DNA of 64,000 nt, taken from the NCBI GenBank assembly GCA_016709225.1, contig JADJEE010000012.1, forward strand, positions 2,307,630 through 2,371,629. Reading direction: 5' to 3'. The position numbers and the translations under genes were made by a program. The stretch comes from Deltaproteobacteria bacterium. Its GTDB lineage: Bacteria > Myxococcota_A > Polyangia > Nannocystales > Nannocystaceae. Of the stretch, positions 18,657 to 26,845 are shown piece by piece; the first letter of the stretch is position 1; every line of letters starts with the position of its first letter. The notes beneath the pieces are model-generated. The model saw nothing but the letters and a program-made list of their open reading frames with translations, was not told the DNA's origin and did not search any database.

Positions 18657-19616
18657 ATGGTTAAACCGGAGGGCAGGTGGGGGAACGTACCGTCCGTGAG
18701 GCGTTCGTCGACTCCGTGGCTCTTGCTCGTTGCCTGCAATTCGACCGGGGTCGGCCCCGTGGCGCTGAAGGAGCAGCCCAGCGGCACGACGGTGCGCGCC
18801 GTGAAGGTGAGCGGCAGGATGTCGACGATCCTTGGCCTCACATCATCGACCGAGACCATCACGAGCGACATCCCGAAGGACAGCGCGTCGGGCGTGTTCG
18901 AGGTGCGCGTCGAAGAGACACCACCCGAGATCCTGCAGATCGCCACCACGGCGACATGCCGCGTCGGCGATTTCACCATCGCCCAACCCTTGACGTGGAA
19001 CGGCAGCATCGGCCACACCCCCGTCGGCGAGAGTCGCGAGTTCTCGGCGCAGTACCTGCCCTCCGCCGCCGCACCGGGGTTGCCCAGCGCCTGCGAGTTC
19101 TCCGCGTTCGCCGGCAGCATGCGTCCGGGCCCGAGCGTCGACATCACGCCGGTTCGGCTCGCGACCGCGTGCTGGCAGCCCGATGCGATCGTCGAGGGCT
19201 CGTGTCCGGCCGAGCGACTGCCGCGCACCGCGATCGACGAGCGCCTGCCGGCGTCGATCCCCGCGCTCGTCTCGAGCGGCGCGCGCATTCACGGCAGCGG
19301 CTACGCGGTACCGTTCTACTTCGTCGTCACGGCCAACACGAACCAGCTCGAACGCGCGAGCGTGAACGCCAGGATCTCGTGCATCGTCGACGGCAAGGTG
19401 ATCGAAGCCTCGGCGGACGCGCTCACACAGATCGATCACCTCGCCGCCGGCGAATCGGTCCACGGACACGGCATTTCGTTCGCCCGCGCGCCGCTGCCGG
19501 CCAGACCCGAGTGGTGCACCGTCGAGTTCGAGCACACGTCGGCCGACGCTCCACGCGTGTCCATCGCGAGCTGGTGCATCCGCGACGGACACGCGACGGC
19601 TGGCGCATGCGCGTAG
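18657..19616 (+). CDS. Hypothetical lipoprotein
   Basis: ATG at 18657; a GTG at 18696 would give the signal peptide RRSSTPWLLLVACNS (lipobox LVAC). The gene is flanked by the 75-nt direct repeats. Confidence 0.55.
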   Translation: MVKPEGRWGNVPSVRRSSTPWLLLVACNSTGVGPVALKEQPSGTTVRAVKVSGRMSTILGLTSSTETITSDIPKDSASGVFEVRVEETPPEILQIATTATCRVGDFTIAQPLTWNGSIGHTPVGESREFSAQYLPSAAAPGLPSACEFSAFAGSMRPGPSVDITPVRLATACWQPDAIVEGSCPAERLPRTAIDERLPASIPALVSSGARIHGSGYAVPFYFVVTANTNQLERASVNARISCIVDGKVIEASADALTQIDHLAAGESVHGHGISFARAPLPARPEWCTVEFEHTSADAPRVSIASWCIRDGHATAGACA

Positions 19617-19636
19617 CGACGTGGGACGACGATCCG

Positions 19637-19710
19637 TTCGGCGACGCCGGCGACGGCGACATGTTCGTCTCGTCACTTGGCGGTCTGAATCGAGCCGTCG
19701 GGACCGACCG
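19637..19710. repeat. Direct repeat copy B
   Basis: ttcggcgacgccggcgacggcgacatgttcgtctcgtcacttggcggtctgaatcgagccgtcgggaccgaccgc lies downstream of the 18657..19616 stop and overlaps the 3' end of the convergent anti-sigma gene in antisense. Confidence 0.7.
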
Positions 19711-20170
19711 CGAGGTTCGGATCATCGCAGGCACAGGGCGCCCGCGTGCACGCGAGCACGCAGGCCGCCTGGGCGTCCGTCATCTCGCTGCGTACGGGCG
19801 AGTCGCCGCCCGCCGGCGGGCTCCCATCGGGCTGCGAGGCGTTCTTCTGGTAGCCGGGCCAGTCGTACAGCGGCAGCTCCTCCTCGTGCTTCGGTCGCGC
19901 GTCGGGGTCGGCCACGCTCAGCTCGTACATCGGGCAGTGGGCCCACGACACGGTGACCAGCCCGACCGCGAGCGCGCCGAGCACCATCACGCGCAGCCAC
20001 TGCCGCACGAACGGGCCGAACTCGCGGCGCGGTCGCCAGGTGCCCTGGTCGGCCTCGGCCTCGAGCCGCGCGAGGAAGCGGCGGTGGGCCCCGTCGACGT
20101 CGCTCGAGTGTCGATCGAGCGCCGACTTGGCGCGGGAGATCAGCTCGGCTCGTGATTCATCGGCGTTCAC
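19673..20170 (-). CDS. Membrane-anchored anti-sigma factor (putative)
   Basis: Begins 4 nt after the sigma stop, with a GTG start. One TM helix (WLRVMVLGALAVGLVTVSW) is followed by a Cys-rich C-terminal domain. Confidence 0.55.
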   Translation of the reverse strand: MNADESRAELISRAKSALDRHSSDVDGAHRRFLARLEAEADQGTWRPRREFGPFVRQWLRVMVLGALAVGLVTVSWAHCPMYELSVADPDARPKHEEELPLYDWPGYQKNASQPDGSPPAGGDSPVRSEMTDAQAACVLACTRAPCACDDPNLAVGPDGSIQTAK

Positions 20171-20173
20171 GGC

Positions 20174-20731
20174 TCACACTCTTCCTTCTCGCGCGCGCAG
20201 CTTGGCGACCGCAGCATCGAAGCGATCGCGACCCAGGCGGAGACGCGAATACACGGTGTTGACGGAGATCTCGAGCAGCGTCGCGACCTCGGGTGCCGAC
20301 AACGCCTCGAACTCCATCAGCACGAAGACCTCGCGCAGCTTGCTCGACATCCCATCCATCGCCCGCAGCGCGAGCGCCAGGGCCTCGTTGTTGGCGACGT
20401 CACGCTCGGGATCGTCGGCGGCCGCCGGCAGGGCATCGACGAGCTCGGGCCGTCGCACGCGGCGGCGGTTGCGGGCGACGCCGCGGGCGATGCCATACAG
20501 CCACGCCCGCGCCGGCCGCGAGGGGTCGAAGTCGGCGCGGCGGCGGTGCGCGATCACGAACACCTCCTGCGTCACGTCGTCGGCGTCGATCGGCGGCACA
20601 CCGAGCCCGACCAGGGCCCGCAGCACGAACGGGTAGTGCTCGCGGAACGCCGAGGCGACGTCCAGCTCGCCGCTGCCGACCACGACGAGCGCCGCCGGGG
20701 CCGGCGCGGCCGGCGGGTCGTAGGCGCTCAT
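20174..20731 (-). CDS. ECF-type RNA polymerase sigma factor
   Basis: Region 2 (AFREHYPFVLRALVGLGVPPIDADDVTQEVFVIAHRR...RAWLYGIARG) and region 4 (REVFVLMEFEALSAPEVATLLEISVNTVYSRLRLGR) are present. The ATG at 20731 is in frame with track ORF 20174..21295. Confidence 0.8.
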   Translation of the reverse strand: MSAYDPPAAPAPAALVVVGSGELDVASAFREHYPFVLRALVGLGVPPIDADDVTQEVFVIAHRRRADFDPSRPARAWLYGIARGVARNRRRVRRPELVDALPAAADDPERDVANNEALALALRAMDGMSSKLREVFVLMEFEALSAPEVATLLEISVNTVYSRLRLGRDRFDAAVAKLRAREGRV

Positions 20732-20782
20732 CAGGCACGATTCTGCCACGACCTGGATTTGTCGCGGCCGCGCCCGATCCGT

Positions 20783-20826
20783 CAGTGGCGTCGGCAGTGG
20801 CGTCGGCAGTGGCGTCGGCAGTGGCC
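20783..20826. repeat. 12-nt tandem repeat (cagtggcgtcgg x ~3.5) in the ECF sigma promoter region
   Basis: gtcagtggcgtcggcagtggcgtcggcagtggcgtcggcagtggccc lies in the roughly 100-nt gap between the msrB stop and the sigma start. Confidence 0.6.
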
Positions 20827-20832
20827 CTGGTT

Positions 20833-21273
<441 letters not shown>

Positions 21274-21316
21274 CTTGCGGCGCCAAGCCTGACACGGCCC
21301 CGCGGGCGCGGCAAAG

Positions 21317-22180
21317 CTACGCGACGCGACGCGCGTAGACCTCGAACGAGGTGCCGAGTCCGACGCGGTCCATCCACGTCGCCGGCAAGGCCGCGGCGTG
21401 ACCGAGCACCTGCGAGAGCGCGACCGCAGGAGCCGAGCCACCCAGTGCGTGGCGTCGCAGCGCACGGGCCAGCGTCTGCGGCCCGAGGTTGGAGAAGCTG
21501 GTCCACCGCACCGGCTCGAGGCCGACCCGCCGCAGCAGCGTACGCAGCCCCTCGCGCGTGAAGAGGGCGAGGTGATCGGGCGGCGTGATCATCGGGAAGC
21601 GGCGACCCATCAGTCGCGCCGGCATGCCCGACATGCTCGGAGTCGACAGCGCAACGATGCCCGCAGGTTCGAGCCACTGCACCATCGTGCGCAGCGCCGC
21701 GTGAGGATCGGGGAGGTGCTCGATCACCTCCCACAGCGCGAGCGCCTGCCATGGTCGCGGCGGCTCGTATTGCTCGAGCCAGGTGGTGTGCACGACGTGC
21801 CCGCGCGCACGCGCAGCCGCGGCGGTGCGGGCCGGATCGACGCCCTCGATCTCGAGCCCGATGGCCTTGGCCGCGTCGAGGAAGTGACCGGGCCCGCAGC
21901 CGACCTCGATCACGCGATGGGCTCCGAGCTCGGCGACCACACGGGCGCGCGCGTCGGCCTCCGCCCGCATGCGCACGGCGGCGTCCTGCGCGGTCTCGTG
22001 GTAGTCGGGCTGCAGGTACGTCGCCTGCACGATGTCACGGGGGGGCAGCGGCGCGACGAAGAGCGTCCCGCAGTCGCGGCAACGCACGAGCGGGTGCCCG
22101 GCGACCTCGAAGGCCCACTGCGATCGTGCGCACGCGCAGGCCGGACACGGACGCAAACCCTCTGCCACGCGCGCGCTCAC
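21317..22180 (-). CDS. Class I SAM-dependent methyltransferase with an N-terminal zinc-ribbon
   Basis: Motif I VIEVGCGPGHF and post-I LGLEIEGVD are present. The N-terminal CPACAC...CRDCG ribbon is followed by the methyltransferase fold. GTG start. Confidence 0.75.
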   Translation of the reverse strand: MSARVAEGLRPCPACACARSQWAFEVAGHPLVRCRDCGTLFVAPLPPRDIVQATYLQPDYHETAQDAAVRMRAEADARARVVAELGAHRVIEVGCGPGHFLDAAKAIGLEIEGVDPARTAAAARARGHVVHTTWLEQYEPPRPWQALALWEVIEHLPDPHAALRTMVQWLEPAGIVALSTPSMSGMPARLMGRRFPMITPPDHLALFTREGLRTLLRRVGLEPVRWTSFSNLGPQTLARALRRHALGGSAPAVALSQVLGHAAALPATWMDRVGLGTSFEVYARRVA

Positions 22181-22231
22181 CGTCGACGGCGACGATAGCA
22201 GAGCGCGCGCGCGGCCGTCAGCTCGTGGATC

Positions 22232-22402
22232 TCAGCAGTCGCACGGGCACGGGCAATCGTCGCAGTCGCAGAGGTCGCCGCACGGGCAAGGGCTCGCTGC
22301 ATCGGCGCCGACGACGGGTGCCGTGGCGCCGGGTGCGACGGCGCAGCCGCAGCCGCAGCCCGCGAGGTTGGTGGTGGTGGGGGTGGTGTTGCTGTCGTTC
22401 AT
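22232..22402 (-). CDS. 56-aa Cys-rich peptide (13 Cys; metallothionein-like), not in the ORF track
   Basis: Translating the minus strand gives MNDSNTTPTTTNLAGCGCGCAVAPGATAPVVGADAASPCPCGDLCDCDDCPCPCDC* (ATG 22400-22402, TGA 22232-22234). It is in the same frame as, and 30 nt downstream of, the CorE-like sigma stop. GC3 is about 89% in this frame. The sequence was checked for consistency against two overlapping track ORFs. Confidence 0.45.
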   Translation of the reverse strand: MNDSNTTPTTTNLAGCGCGCAVAPGATAPVVGADAASPCPCGDLCDCDDCPCPCDC

Positions 22403-22432
22403 GTCCCTGCCGACGCGCGCACCGACCCGGCA

Positions 22433-23020
22433 TTACGACGGTGGCAGTGGATGATCGCAGCTGCAGTCGCCACAGCCACCATCGGCACAGCTGCCGCAGC
22501 ACTGCGCGAGCGCGCGGCGCAGGCGTTCGCGCGCACGGAACAGGCGCACGCCGGCCGCGTTCGGCGTGATGCCGACCTCGGCCGCGACGTCCTTCACCGC
22601 GGCGCCTTCGAGGTCGACGCGGCGCAGCACCGTGGCTTGATCGTGGGGCAGCGCATGCGCGAGCGTCAGCAGACAGCTGCAGATCTCGGCGCGCTCGTCG
22701 GGTGCTGGCTCGGGCGCGCGCTCGAGCGCCCGCGCCAGCTCGTCGAGCCTGCGCGCGAAGGTGTCGTCGCGCCGGCGGTGATCGATCACCGCGTTGCGCA
22801 GCATCCGGTAGAACCACGCCACCACCGACTCGTGATCCCGCAGCTGATCGATGCGCTCGAGCGAGCGCACGAACGCCGTCTGCAGGAGATCCTCGGCCAG
22901 CGCCGGGTCGTGCACGCGGCGCTGCACGAACCCGAGGAACGCGCGCCAGCTCGGCAGCAGCGCGTCGATCGGCGAGGACTCGGGTTGATCGTGCATCGTG
23001 GGGCGGATCTCGTGGTTCAT
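22433..23020 (-). CDS. ECF sigma factor with a C-terminal Cys-rich domain (CorE-like, ECF44-type)
   Basis: Region 2 (DLLQTAFVRSLERIDQLRDHESVVAWFYRMLRNAV) and region 4 (LEGAAVKDVAAEVGITPNAAGVRLFRARE) are followed by QCCGSCADGGCGDCSCDHP. A GGGAGG lies 5 nt upstream of the MNHEIRP ATG. Confidence 0.75.
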   Translation of the reverse strand: MNHEIRPTMHDQPESSPIDALLPSWRAFLGFVQRRVHDPALAEDLLQTAFVRSLERIDQLRDHESVVAWFYRMLRNAVIDHRRRDDTFARRLDELARALERAPEPAPDERAEICSCLLTLAHALPHDQATVLRRVDLEGAAVKDVAAEVGITPNAAGVRLFRARERLRRALAQCCGSCADGGCGDCSCDHPLPPS

Positions 23021-23123
23021 CGTAGCCTCCCAGGTCGGCGGTGCCAGCACCGCGCACGCGCGGCGTAGCGCGCCCGGTCGTACGCCGACGTGCGGCGCTG
23101 CGGCGTATTACCGCGCCGGGCGG

Positions 23124-24329
23124 TCACGCCGCGCGCGGTGACCAGCGCCACCACGCACCGAGCTGCACCGCCTCGGCCAGCGCCAGCGCCAGCGGCGACG
23201 CCACCGGCCCCCACAACAGCGCGCCGCCGCCCAGCGCCGCGGCGCGCAGCCCCAGGCCCACGAGGTCCCAGGACACGAGGCCGCCGGGGTCGCGTGCGAC
23301 GCGGAGCTGACGGCCGATGGTGTTGGCCAGTCGCAGCGCAGCGAAGGGGGCCGACGCGAGCACGAGCAGATCGATGCGGTCGGCGACCTGCCAGCCGGCC
23401 GCGCGATCGATGATCGCGGCGCTCGGCGGCCACGCCAGCACGCCGGCCATCGCGACCACGCCGACGCCGGCGACGACGCCCCCCAGCAGCGCCCAGCGAC
23501 GCAGGCTCGCGACCTCGGCGAGCCCCGCCACACCACCGACGCGCAGCGCGAGGATGGTCGCGCCCGCGGTCGGCACCGCGAGGATCGCGTTGACGAAGAA
23601 GTAGCCGTAGCTGAGCAACGCGAAGTCACCATCGCCTAGCACGTACAGGGACATCATCGAGTCGACCAGGCCGAGGTTCACGTAGACCAGCGTGTCGAGA
23701 TAGAGCGCGAAGCCAGGCGCACGCGCCTTCGGCATCGCGCTGCCCGGCGCATCGTCGCTGCCGCGTCGCAGCGCCGACGGCAGCAGCACCAGCGCGGCCA
23801 GCAACAGGCCGCCGGCGAGCCCACCGATCGCGCCGCGGGCCAACGAGCCGCCGCTGCCCGCGACCCACAGCGTGCCGACCACCGTGCCCAGCGGCGGCAG
23901 CCAGTCGACCATCACGCCCAGCCGCTCGTGACCGTGGCGCTCCGAGAGCGCCCGCACTGCGCCGCCGTACGCCGCGATCACGACGCACAGCGCGAACACC
24001 AGGCTCTCGATCGACCACCACGCCGGCCGCGGGATCACGATCGCGAGGCTCGCGGTCGCAGCAAAGGCGACCGCGCTGCAGCTGGCCAGGCCGGTGCGCG
24101 CCAGCGCGGCCCCCGAGGGCCCCGGCGGCAGCGGGATCCACCGCGCCCGCAGCAAGGCGAGCGTGAAGCTGCGGGTCGCGTTCACCACCACCACGCCGCG
24201 GAAGAACAGGTCGGCGCCCTCGGTGGCCTGCAGCTGCCGTGCAATCACCAGCTCGCGGACCATGCCGAGCAGCAGCGTCGCGGCCGACAGCGCGGCCATC
24301 CATGCGAAGGTCCGCCGCGCCGCGCTCAC
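23124..24329 (-). CDS. Polytopic membrane protein (MurJ / UPF0104 flippase-like)
   Basis: About 10 predicted TM helices, with the N-terminal pattern RRTFAWMAALSAATLLLGMVRELVIARQLQATEGADLFF. Only the C-terminal ~400 aa of the track ORF look coding. A GTG at 24329 or an ATG at 24299 are the candidate starts. Confidence 0.5.
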   Translation of the reverse strand: MSAARRTFAWMAALSAATLLLGMVRELVIARQLQATEGADLFFRGVVVVNATRSFTLALLRARWIPLPPGPSGAALARTGLASCSAVAFAATASLAIVIPRPAWWSIESLVFALCVVIAAYGGAVRALSERHGHERLGVMVDWLPPLGTVVGTLWVAGSGGSLARGAIGGLAGGLLLAALVLLPSALRRGSDDAPGSAMPKARAPGFALYLDTLVYVNLGLVDSMMSLYVLGDGDFALLSYGYFFVNAILAVPTAGATILALRVGGVAGLAEVASLRRWALLGGVVAGVGVVAMAGVLAWPPSAAIIDRAAGWQVADRIDLLVLASAPFAALRLANTIGRQLRVARDPGGLVSWDLVGLGLRAAALGGGALLWGPVASPLALALAEAVQLGAWWRWSPRAA

Positions 24330-24943
24330 GTGCCCCACTCGGCCGGCACGTCGGGCGACGACAGCTTGCCCTTGATGTGCAGCAGCGTCGCGGTCACGCG
24401 GGCGAAGGCTTCGCGCACCGGCGCCGCGATCGCCTCGCCGTCGACCAGCGACAACACCCGCAGCGCGGCCTCGAAGGTCGACATGCCGCGGGGGTCGTGC
24501 TGCGTGCGCACGGTCCAGAACGACGGCGGCCCCGGCGGCAACGCCACACACGGCAGCTCGCGCACGAGCGGTGCACGTCGCGACATCCGCGAGCACTGAT
24601 GCCAGGTGCCGTCGAGCAGCACGATGCCGCGGGGCCGGCTCGCGAGCTGGCCACCGCTTGGGGCAACGTCGAGCTCGGGTGCGCCTTCGCGGGGGAACAG
24701 CACCGACCAGTCGATGGCGTCGTCGGCGATGGGCCCGGGGTCGAACGCGGGCTCGCGCATGCCGTAGGGCACGATCGTGACGCCCTCGACCATGCGCTCG
24801 AAGAGTCGTGCGGTGTTGGTCGGCTTGGGCGCCTCGCGGGCGTGCTGCACGATCGCGAAGCGCACGCTCGAGCGCACCCGCGGGAACGTGGCGCACAGGC
24901 AGGTCTCGGGCGTCAGGCTGCACCCCCGGCAACGGGGCTTCAT
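24326..24943 (-). CDS. DTW-domain protein (second copy)
   Basis: CRGCSLTPETCLCATF and the VLLDGTWHQ motif are present. The 205-aa product is the C-terminal part of track ORF 24326..25552. Its stop overlaps the downstream membrane-protein start. Confidence 0.75.
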   Translation of the reverse strand: MKPRCRGCSLTPETCLCATFPRVRSSVRFAIVQHAREAPKPTNTARLFERMVEGVTIVPYGMREPAFDPGPIADDAIDWSVLFPREGAPELDVAPSGGQLASRPRGIVLLDGTWHQCSRMSRRAPLVRELPCVALPPGPPSFWTVRTQHDPRGMSTFEAALRVLSLVDGEAIAAPVREAFARVTATLLHIKGKLSSPDVPAEWGT

Positions 24944-25028
24944 GCGGCTGCGAGCGCTCACGGGGCCCGCACGATAGCACCGACCGCCGCCGACGGTCGC
25001 AGGGCGCCGACGTGACCGGCAGGCTGCT

Positions 25029-26465
25029 TCAGAGCGCGTAGATCTCGACGTCGTCGACCCAGACGCTCTCGATGCCGGCCCAGTTGTACAGATCGACCGC
25101 GAAGCTGCCGGTTGCGTCCTGCAGCTCGGGGGTCGTGTCGAGGATGTCGATGAACCAGTCGGTGGGCTCGGGGTCGGTCGCGAGCCACACCTTGCCGCGC
25201 AGCTGCGTGCCGCCCGGCAGCTGCAGGACTTGGTAGCGCATGCGGTACACCGTGCCCGGCTGCAGGCCGCCGGGGATCGGATCGAAGCTCGCCGACGACA
25301 GCGTCTCGATGCCCGCGACCTCGTGCCAGATGCCGAGCGACTGCAGATAGAAGCCCTCGAGGAACAGCGCGTAGCCCTGCCCGGGCGGATCGGTTTGGTC
25401 GAGCGAGCCGCCGTTCTGCCGCGCGTAGAGCCCGAAGCCCTGCGAGTTCCAGTCGGTGAACTCGATCGACGCGTACATCTCGGCGTCGCGCAGATCGAAG
25501 CCCGGCAGCACGATGCGTGCGGTCCCACCGGTGATGCCCGACAGCTCGCCACGACCGTTCTGGATCGTCGCCGACAGCACGTTGTCGCCGACGATCATCC
25601 ACGGCGACGGCCATGGATCGCCGTCGTTGCCGTCGAATGACTCGGTGAAGATCGGCAGCTCGCCCATCATGCCGCCGCTGGTGCCGCCGTCGCTCGAGCT
25701 GCCGCCGCCCTCGGTGAGCCCGACGGTGTCGATGCCTCCGCTCGTGGCCATGCCGCCGTCGCTGCCAGCGCTCGTGCCCGTGACGACGTCGCCGCTCGTG
25801 CCCGTGACGACATCGCCACTCGTGCCCGTGACGACGTCGCCGCTCGTGCCCGTGACGACATCGCCACTCGTGCCCGTGACGACGTCGCCACTCGTGCCCG
25901 TGACGACATCGCCACTCGTGCCCGTGACGACGTCGCCGCTCGTGCCCGTGACGACGTCGCCACTCGTGCCCGTGACGACGTCGCCACTCGTGCCCGTGAC
26001 GACGTCGCCACTCGTGCCCGTGACGACGTCGCCACTCGTGCCCGTCGCGACGTCGCCGCTCGTGCCCGTCGCGGTGCCGTCACCGCGGGAGGTCGTGTCG
26101 CTGCCCGAGCCGGCGCTGGTGTTGCCCTCGGTCGTGCCGCTGCCCTCGCCCCCGGTGCTGCTGCCCTCGCTGGCGCTGGTCGTGCTCGCGCCGTGGGTCT
26201 CGGACCCGGTGGTGTCCGCGGCCGTGGTGCCAGGCCCGGTGGTGCCAGGCCCGGTGGTGCCAGGCCCGGTGGTGCCAGGCCCGGTGGTCGAACCGGTGCC
26301 ACCCGAGCTGTCGACACTGCCGGTCGACGCGCTCGCGGAGCTCGCGTCACCACCGCTGCTCGAGCCGGTGATCGATGGATCCTCGGTGACGTCCCCCGTG
26401 CAGGCCCCAGTGACCCACAGGGACGCCACGGCGATCGCTCGATACCAAGGTGCGTTCATGACCAT
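25029..26465 (-). CDS. Lipoprotein with (TGTSGDVV)x13 and TTGPG repeats and a C-terminal globular domain
   Basis: Signal plus lipobox MVMNAPWYRAIAVASLWVTGAC, with a GGGAGG upstream. A long Ser/Thr/Gly linker contains perfect octapeptide repeats. The C-terminal ~220 aa are non-repetitive. Confidence 0.7.
   Translation of the reverse strand: MVMNAPWYRAIAVASLWVTGACTGDVTEDPSITGSSSGGDASSASASTGSVDSSGGTGSTTGPGTTGPGTTGPGTTGPGTTAADTTGSETHGASTTSASEGSSTGGEGSGTTEGNTSAGSGSDTTSRGDGTATGTSGDVATGTSGDVVTGTSGDVVTGTSGDVVTGTSGDVVTGTSGDVVTGTSGDVVTGTSGDVVTGTSGDVVTGTSGDVVTGTSGDVVTGTSGDVVTGTSAGSDGGMATSGGIDTVGLTEGGGSSSDGGTSGGMMGELPIFTESFDGNDGDPWPSPWMIVGDNVLSATIQNGRGELSGITGGTARIVLPGFDLRDAEMYASIEFTDWNSQGFGLYARQNGGSLDQTDPPGQGYALFLEGFYLQSLGIWHEVAGIETLSSASFDPIPGGLQPGTVYRMRYQVLQLPGGTQLRGKVWLATDPEPTDWFIDILDTTPELQDATGSFAVDLYNWAGIESVWVDDVEIYAL
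25771..26075. repeat. 24-nt tandem repeat, ~13 near-identical units (ctcgtgcccgtgacgacgtcgcc[g/a]), coding for TGTSGDVV
   Basis: Directly visible on the + strand. The repeat is in frame within the lipoprotein gene on the - strand. Confidence 0.85.
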
Positions 26466-26845
26466 GTCGCGATGCGCCTCCCTGCGCACGTCATTGCGGC
26501 CAGGGTATCACGGTCGGCAGGCCATTCGGCCACTCGGCACCGCCGCACCCGCAAGCGTTTGGATTGCACGTCGATGTCACCGCGCGGTGTCGCGCGGGTC
26601 CTGACGGGGCGACGCGAATGCCGACATGGCGGCGCGTCGATCGAAGTGGACAGGAGTTCCCCGATACGACGCGAGGCGGAGCTCCACATCGCCGTCGATC
26701 GCCGCGTCATCGCCCAGCGACCGCTCCGCCCGATCGAGTCGATCGAGTCGATCTTCGTCGACCTTGGTCGCATCATCCGAGCGCACGCTCGGAAGGTGCA
26801 TCGTGATACACCGAAGATGGGCGACAACGCTTCGCCGATGTCGAG

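Follow-up and report, generated by a model that had tools for sequence, protein, structure and literature searches.

We have analysed a sigma factor gene and the small gene directly downstream of it in a window of 64,000 nt (contig JADJEE010000012.1 of assembly GCA_016709225.1; 70% GC), where all features of the locus lie on the minus strand. Each of the two genes is preceded by a copy of the same bipartite motif, GTAAT-N16-CGTC, and from the sequences we consider it probable that the conserved unit consists of two genes and two promoters: a metal-sensing, CorE-like extracytoplasmic function (ECF) sigma factor, and a cytoplasmic metallothionein-like peptide of 56 aa as its direct target. An earlier note on this DNA had proposed a CorE-like sigma factor accompanied by a new small metal-binding peptide; the proposal is supported here and the shared promoter makes it more specific, while metal binding by the peptide stays a prediction. 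Taken with its relatives, the peptide suggests a family of metallothionein-like proteins in bacteria, as yet uncharacterised, whose genes are activated by a sigma factor.

The sigma factor open reading frame (ORF; 22433..23020, ATG at 23020, TAA at 22433) encodes 195 aa ending in ...QCCGSCADGGCGDCSCDHPLPPS, with sigma2 and sigma4 as its only domains, the architecture of group 4 (Pfam Sigma70_r2, E 5.8e-13; Sigma70_r4_2, E 4.9e-08; also Sigma70_ECF). The best NCBIfam match is SigZ (E 9e-29, below the SigZ cut-off), a family assigned to ECF238 by Casas-Pastor et al. A search at E<=1e-10 gave 1093 homologues, and relatives of the protein carry the label Nannocystaceae. In an alignment of 24 homologues, both Cys of the linker motif Cys114-Ser-Cys116 (22673..22681) were invariant. 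The tail, residues 174-188, forms a Cys-rich domain at the C-terminus (CRD; 22457..22501) with six Cys (C174, C175, C178, C183, C186 and C188), of which all except C174 were invariant in the same alignment; the family consensus of this tail is (S/C)CGTCAxHGCxDCTC. The CorE-like group (ECF44, merged into ECF238) is defined by a linker CxC and a C-terminal CRD, both of which are essential in CorE and CorE2, with no anti-sigma factor involved (PMC4937300, PMC6851896, PMC8999054, PMC7826278). The hallmark of the CorE/ECF44 group which the earlier note saw in the C-terminus is thus present along with the linker CxC, and we accept the protein as CorE-like on these two defining features. Neither of the genes flanking the sigma gene, that of the Cys-rich peptide and that of an uncharacterised 401-aa membrane protein, matches an anti-sigma domain. 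The membrane protein gene and an upstream DTW-domain gene are syntenic with the sigma gene in two further loci (loci are numbered with the prefix L; here L092 and L095), and we see no metal link for them. At L097 (2703-3248) a peptide-adjacent sigma factor keeps the C-terminal CRD and is without the linker segment bearing CxC, and resembles a natural variant in which a feature described as essential has been deleted.

The small ORF starts at an ATG at 22402 and ends at 22232, 30 nt downstream of the sigma gene and in the same frame, just as had been described, and its translation reads MNDSNTTPTTTNLAGCGCGCAVAPGATAPVVGADAASPCPCGDLCDCDDCPCPCDC. The length and position given in the earlier note hold and the GC content at third codon positions (GC3), put there at about 89%, is 0.877, with neighbouring genes at 0.87-0.91; the number of Cys, however, is 11 and not 13. 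These lie at positions 16, 18, 20, 39, 41, 45, 47, 50, 52, 54 and 56, making up 20% of the peptide with eight among the last 18 residues, and they form seven overlapping CxC triplets (Cys 16/18/20, 39/41, 45/47 and 50/52/54/56). The peptide is acidic with seven Asp, and aromatic residues, His, Lys and Arg are all absent. By composition it resembles a metallothionein as operationally defined, being small, rich in Cys, free of aromatics and containing CxC motifs. It is the sole ORF of its Cys-rich type in the window.

Direct searches with the peptide were unproductive, and orthologous loci were found by anchoring on the sigma factor. Six contigs encoding a 98%-identical sigma factor (L086-L091) contain the intact peptide ORF with two substitutions (T10P and L44V), and the ORF is also kept where the sigma factor is about 70% (L092-L095) or 63% identical (L096 and L002). 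The orthologous ORFs always start with ATG, 29-30 nt past the sigma stop, and have a related N-terminus (MTNDTLAPTTSTPSAGCGC... in L002 versus MNDSNTTPTTTNLAGCGCGC... in the window) followed by a CxC-rich C-terminus. The ratio of nonsynonymous to synonymous divergence (pN/pS) is 0.46 for L092 versus L095 and 0.59 for L002 versus L096, at pS of about 0.45-0.5; insertions and deletions among the orthologues all preserve the frame, and conservation extends to the Cys columns. The gene is real and conserved. The loss or disruption of the ORF in orthologous loci had been named beforehand as a result that would speak against the finding, and we find it intact and syntenic with the sigma genes. The shared reading frame is true of the window but is not conserved, as the gap is 29 nt in L002 and L096, and for this reason we rejected a stop-codon readthrough that would fuse the sigma factor to the peptide.

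It should be considered that the ORF might be untranslated, with only a promoter and the 5' leader of a downstream gene being conserved. Gene calls skipped the ORF on all six near-identical contigs, spurious ORFs are abundant in high-GC genomes, and a phmmer search of the peptide against 1.84 billion representatives gave no relatives, returning a single spurious match to a repeat protein. The start codon, frame and Cys codons are retained nevertheless across in-frame indels and a synonymous divergence of about 45-50%; GC3 equals that of the neighbouring genes; and canonical GGAG ribosome-binding sites precede the peptides of other clades. The genes downstream of the peptide also differ among the orthologous loci (an RHH-like protein in one, a 177-aa protein and a TonB receptor in another, a VWA protein in a third), which means that no conserved gene follows for which the ORF could serve as leader. 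We find an untranslated ORF hardly credible. The description of the peptide as unannotated is right for the six near-identical contigs but not throughout, since the gene is called on contig JAGOHL010000023.1 (metagenome-assembled genome, MAG, GCA_017996215.1). Gene callers miss such peptide genes inconsistently, and the relatives, where named at all, are labelled 'hypothetical protein'. Directly upstream of the peptide gene in L082 (80-268) and L083 (1637-1825) a 62-aa ORF overlapping with the promoter motif has been called, probably spuriously.

A bipartite element, (c)TGTAATG(c)...tGCGTC, was found upstream of 21 aligned peptide genes with a spacer of exactly 16 nt in all of them, and it occurs in four further peptide loci as well, that is, in 25 out of 25 peptide genes examined. 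The form GTAAT-N16-CGT[CT] precedes 24 of these, the remaining one (L082) having GTAAG. The architecture GTAAT-N16-CGTC is that of an ECF promoter. In 682 kb of sigma-flanking loci we counted 101 exact sites versus 1.65 in shuffles, and 45 of 80 genome loci hold at least one. Positions left free by the pattern are biased as well: T at -1 (76%), G at +5 (80%), G at +20 (79%) and C at +27 (84%). In relatives the motif precedes genes for P1B-type ATPases with HMA, CopZ-like HMA proteins, Cupredoxin_1 and HMBD proteins, outer-membrane efflux proteins (OEP), multicopper oxidase, MbnP and, in L025, a redoxin. It is also found upstream of the sigma genes themselves in L032, L064 and L086-L095. The experimentally defined CorE regulon comprises copA, copB, cuoB and an outer-membrane efflux gene (PMC3107203), and the motif-bearing gene classes in relatives are those of this regulon. 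From the co-occurrence and the autoregulatory placement we infer that GTAAT-N16-CGTC is the promoter read by this CorE-like clade. As the peptide gene carries the promoter motif of the sigma family, it is most likely not a mere neighbour but under the direct control of the sigma factor.

Several other motif-bearing genes were seen in these loci. Exact or variant copies precede small His-rich proteins at L018 (4555), L074 (5486), L076 (6411) and L057 (2905), examples being MNRGPS...HAHHESHEGHAGHGPGH and MAHEHTHSHDSHAA...; CorE-like sigma factors may have in these proteins a further class of small targets that bind metal. In three Polyangium genomes (L021, 647; L024, 626; L031, 634) the motif stands before a putative lipoprotein of about 144 aa, rich in Pro and Ala and ending in MSCGEGSCG, which has no Pfam match. 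A motif-bearing MbnP gene is divergent from the sigma gene in L055 and L085 (around 3983 and 2347, minus strand); in L085 it is closely followed by a called MauG/MbnH-like peroxidase gene, a pair of the copper-acquisition type, and a DJ-1/PfpI gene downstream of the peptide, noted with these two loci, carries the motif too.

The window holds exactly two exact copies of the motif (expected 0.13; two were reached in 0 of 100 shuffles), and they flank the sigma gene. The first (23087..23111) is the putative autoregulatory CorE-type promoter of the sigma gene, its -10 element ending about 66 nt before the sigma ATG. The second (22412..22436), the candidate CorE-type promoter of the peptide gene, fills the gap between the two genes, with 9 nt between the end of its -10 element, CGTC, and the peptide ATG. 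Its -35 element GTAAT contains the TAA stop of the sigma gene, coding stop and promoter element sharing bases at 22433-22436. The same arrangement holds in all five loci with a downstream peptide (L001, L002, L092, L095 and L096), and the sigma stop is TAA in these loci because it lies inside the -35 element of the peptide promoter. This promoter geometry accounts for the gap of 29 or 30 nt and for the chance sharing of frame between peptide and sigma factor in the window.

In L001, L002, L026, L092, L095 and L096 the -10 element ends 8-9 nt before an ATG start, and no conserved Shine-Dalgarno sequence was found before the peptide ATG in loci with this spacing. In the remaining peptide subtypes 42-61 nt lie between the -10 element and the ATG, and a clear GGAG is present. 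Owing to the short distance a leaderless mRNA would be expected for the former, with the peptide transcript predicted to start at the ATG or a few nucleotides from it.

The low-complexity, Cys-rich sequence defeats the usual search tools, which explains why the peptide alone gave no match in a word-indexed search and nothing but the spurious phmmer match mentioned above. The sole search that worked used a profile built from the locus-derived peptides, and it returned 19 further peptides of 46-69 aa. Scans of ten peptides against Pfam and NCBIfam at E<=10 gave no usable match, none at all for the window peptide, and sub-threshold Pfam matches to eukaryotic metallothionein models for two relatives only. 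A search of the PDB with the peptide profile at E<=10 gave nine matches, all of them metallothioneins and all weak (E 0.03-7.5). The metallothionein-like character assigned to the peptide from the start thus agrees with its composition and with PDB matches which, though weak, are exclusively to metallothioneins.

To see how widely the pair occurs, we scanned 80 loci from one-genome-per-species contigs encoding relatives of the sigma factor. A CxC-repeat ORF of 30-60 aa adjoins the sigma gene in 15 of the 80, distributed over Myxococcota, Gemmatimonadota and Acidobacteriota. Small ORFs in the ±4-kb flanks were filtered for at least six Cys, at least 15% Cys, less than 12% Arg and at least two CxC, and every ORF passing the filter lay no more than 250 nt from the sigma gene. 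The orientation varies, the peptide gene lying on the same strand, either downstream or upstream, or standing convergent or divergent to the sigma gene; it is downstream in, for example, L001, L002 and L055, and upstream in L026, L038, L039, L051, L052 and L056. Eight contexts of profile-found peptides were inspected, and a CRD-bearing sigma factor is adjacent in seven, while the eighth ends at a contig edge 30 nt past the peptide. Four subtypes can be told apart: the acidic Nannocystaceae type of the window; a basic type, M..NECRCEKKSCGC...CNCGGNCSCAAAK, from diverse Myxococcota; a Gemmatimonadales type, CPCGCxCSCGxxCPC...CNCGCGCE; and a short form from an Acidobacteriaceae MAG. Common to them is the core CxC-x3-CxC-x3-CxC-x3-CxC. 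In the literature we found nothing that links CorE-like sigma factors to metallothionein-like peptides, and nothing on myxobacterial metallothioneins. At L099 (1988-2653) a CRCEK-type peptide gene is divergent from genes for an ArsR/SmtB-family (HTH_5) regulator and a MIP channel, the classic smtA-smtB type of arrangement, yet the peptide keeps GTAAT-N16-CGTT; the contig stops 30 nt past the peptide.

Peptide and sigma genes lie close together over a wide phylogenetic range, with operon arrangements in both orders, which could also mean that the main role of the peptide is regulatory, as a partner of the sigma factor. By exchanging metal with the CRD, or by binding directly to the CRD or the CxC, it would then set the threshold or the shut-off of the response, acting as a functional substitute for the missing anti-sigma factor and not as a bulk metal sink. 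The Cys chemistry of the peptide resembles that of the CRD itself, and CorE-like factors have no known anti-sigma factor (PMC6851896), both of which would suit such a role. The peptide gene is, on the other hand, often convergent or divergent with a promoter of its own (L014, L027, L044, L069, L081, L082 and L084), as is typical of a target gene; 65 of the 80 CorE-like sigma loci are without the peptide; in Myxococcus xanthus, CorE and CorE2 show their metal response in the absence of such a peptide; and the fast-evolving non-Cys sequence argues against a specific protein-protein interface. We regard a mainly regulatory role as improbable. It is the sole serious rival, and it is compatible with a metal-sequestering target peptide.

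A number of observations weigh against the target-peptide model in whole or in part. The published CorE motif centres on an AAC -35 element and may or may not be the same as GTAAT-N16-CGTC. Only variant motifs, namely TGTAAG or TGTAAC with CCGTT or GCGTT, are seen in the Cystobacterineae loci L074 and L076. The window peptide has no significant similarity to characterised metallothioneins, the matches being composition-driven with E above 0.6 for Pfam metallothionein models and at or above 0.03 for the PDB, and its likeness to the CRCEKKSCGC-type and Gemmatimonadales-type peptides may be convergence rather than homology. AlphaFold run on the single peptide sequence gave a mean confidence score (pLDDT) of 46.8 with no confident fold for the apo form, a result that is uninformative. 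The 65 related sigma loci without a peptide count here as well. Finally, the spacing of the CRD Cys is unlike that of CorE2, and metal specificity is not transferable between the two. We considered reading the specificity from the CC doublet by analogy with Cys174 of CorE2, and dropped this as the Cys of CorE2 are spaced in a way that has no counterpart in the clade; no metal specificity is therefore inferred from spacing.

The circuit proposed for the gene pair would run as follows. When the cognate metal rises, the sigma factor would be activated through its CxC and Cys-rich tail; copper is the likeliest metal, judging by the motif-bearing genes in relatives, with Cd or Zn as further candidates. 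Active sigma factor would guide RNA polymerase to the GTAAT-N16-CGTC promoters. The one upstream of its own gene would give positive autoregulation, and the one in the 30-nt gap an mRNA for the peptide with little or no leader. This peptide, acidic and without aromatics, with its 11 Cys arranged as CxC repeats, would hold the metal in thiolate clusters and lower its free concentration, which would act as negative feedback on the sigma factor. A bolder version describes a two-gene circuit spread over several phyla in which the peptide titrates the metal, or exchanges it with the CRD, such that sequestration takes the place of the anti-sigma factor, with the stop-codon -35 element and leaderless mRNA as the Nannocystaceae-type variant; this we put forward only tentatively, and it may well prove too ambitious.

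On the minus strand the gene order is ECF sigma, a 30-nt gap, the 56-aa ORF, a 51-nt gap, a Methyltransf_23 gene, msrB, a second ECF sigma and a 165-aa ORF. This agrees with what had been read from the sequence at the outset, namely a methyltransferase with an N-terminal Cys ribbon 51 nt past the peptide, then msrB, then a pair of ECF and anti-sigma factor. The S-adenosylmethionine (SAM)-dependent methyltransferase (21317..22180) has the N-terminal CPAC...CRDC and matches Methyltransf_23 (E 1.5e-25); its start is disputed among gene callers, giving 287, 283 or 256 aa. Then come msrB for methionine-R-sulfoxide reductase (20833..21273; SelR, E 1e-49) and the second ECF sigma factor (20174..20731; Sigma70_r2 and r4_2). 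The 165-aa protein (19673..20170) has one hydrophobic segment and a start that overlaps the ECF stop by 4 nt, and domain scans gave no family match for it; it is a putative membrane anti-sigma factor only.

The idea that all these genes form a compact metal and oxidative-stress module, as the earlier note suggested, did not survive the comparison. The methyltransferase, msrB and ECF pair accompany the sigma gene only in the 98%-identical, strain-level relatives, and are absent from the next-closest loci with a 63-70% identical sigma factor (L092, L095 and L096). Searches by tblastn in L002-L081 found no homologue of the methyltransferase or msrB, and for the second ECF sigma factor a single weak match in L026 (34% identity, about 1.3 kb from the sigma gene there). 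The promoter motif precedes none of these neighbours. They were rejected as members of a module on grounds of synteny; the arrangement is a lineage-specific juxtaposition, and the neighbours are incidental.

Two further readings of the peptide lean on these neighbours. With msrB two genes downstream on the same strand at short gaps, and with a redoxin-family gene carrying the motif in L025, the peptide might be a thiol-rich redox buffer or sacrificial antioxidant of an oxidative-stress module rather than a metal-binding protein. We think this very unlikely, as msrB is absent from all other peptide-bearing loci, the other motif targets are overwhelmingly copper-handling genes, and the CxC-repeat architecture is characteristic of metal-thiolate clusters. 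The ORF could also encode the precursor of a ribosomally synthesised and post-translationally modified peptide (RiPP), where an N-terminal leader precedes a Cys-rich core modified by the adjacent zinc-ribbon methyltransferase. A polar N-terminal segment is indeed followed by the Cys-rich C-terminus, and the methyltransferase 51 nt downstream has a sub-threshold NCBIfam match to ApyS (E 0.0047, 16 bits against a cut-off of 400 bits). A homologue of the methyltransferase stands beside the peptide in strain-level relatives only, however; cyclase, radical-SAM, YcaO, protease and exporter genes are absent near the window locus and in those peptide-bearing loci whose gene calls were inspected; and the genomic context is that of copper homeostasis. 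We give a RiPP precursor next to no credence.

Between the peptide stop and the methyltransferase start lies a GC-rich hairpin (22164..22215), whose 15-nt arms (22164-22178 and 22201-22215) are 93% complementary and enclose an inner palindrome. The fold of 111 nt has a dG of -58.9 kcal/mol (z = -2.6). It separates the peptide gene from that of the methyltransferase and covers the GTG start of the latter at 22180; candidate roles are those of a U-poor terminator or attenuator, or of something that hinders initiation of methyltransferase translation. An Rfam search of 19000-25000 found no family, and a scan of 20000-24000 for sigma-70 promoters and T-tract terminators found none. Elsewhere in the window, and unrelated to the sigma factor and peptide, a 486-aa ORF (25029-26489, minus strand) contains a long tandem TGTSGDVV run in a region rich in Ser, Gly and Thr.

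If the model holds, it adds a further, widely distributed metallothionein family in Myxococcota, Gemmatimonadota and Acidobacteriota, one under positive control by an ECF sigma factor, and with it a new type of target and of circuit for CorE-like sigma factors. The sharply defined candidate promoter (TGTAATG, GTAAT-N16-CGTC) would permit regulon prediction in hundreds of genomes. The minimal two-gene system makes the mechanism of a sigma factor without an anti-sigma factor testable, and a high-affinity metal-binding peptide combined with an orthogonal metal-responsive sigma factor and promoter would be an attractive part for biosensing or bioremediation.

Among known systems the closest to the sigma factor are CorE and CorE2 of M. 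xanthus (ECF44; merged into ECF238), which likewise consist of sigma2 and sigma4 only, with a linker CxC and a C-terminal CRD (PMC4937300). Like them, the window sigma factor has a likely autoregulatory promoter; it may lack an anti-sigma factor, none being recognisable beside its gene, and the genes preceded by the motif in relatives, for P1B ATPases, multicopper oxidase and outer-membrane efflux protein, resemble the CorE regulon (PMC3107203). It differs in the CRD, where the spacing is CC-x2-C-x4-C-x2-C-x-C and not that of CorE2 (Cys 169, 173, 174, 178 and 181). It differs also in that its only motif-bearing target in the window is a metallothionein-like peptide, a kind of target unreported for CorE and CorE2.

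To our knowledge few bacterial metallothionein families have been described (SmtA/BmtA and MymT), all of them under repressors released by metal. SmtA/BmtA proteins, found in cyanobacteria and, as PmtA, in Pseudomonas, are small Cys-rich cytoplasmic proteins which sequester metal, are induced by it and are encoded beside an SmtB/ArsR sensor. The window locus is similar in that the gene of a small Cys-rich peptide adjoins that of a metal-sensing regulator. In contrast to SmtA/BmtA, His ligands are missing from the window peptide, no zinc-finger-like fold is predicted for it, and the regulator is an activating ECF sigma factor instead of a derepressed ArsR-family repressor. We find no similarity of the window peptide to Metallothio_Pro, Pfam's SmtA-type family, as a search at E<=10 gave it no Pfam match.

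A further known system is MymT of Mycobacterium tuberculosis, a copper-induced CxC-type peptide of about 50 aa which belongs to a copper-stress regulon and was missed by earlier annotation (in part PMC10141476). No sequence similarity to it was found, however, and MymT, a Cu(I) protein of the RicR regulon, is under a CsoR-family repressor and comes from another phylum. The CxC-x3-CxC periodicity and the lack of aromatics are shared with the Neurospora Cu-metallothionein (1T2Y), snail metallothioneins (5ML1 and 6QK5) and wheat Ec-1, and the window peptide has the size of one metallothionein domain. As the matches to these eukaryotic CxC-repeat proteins are weak and driven by composition, the likeness probably reflects convergence and not common descent.

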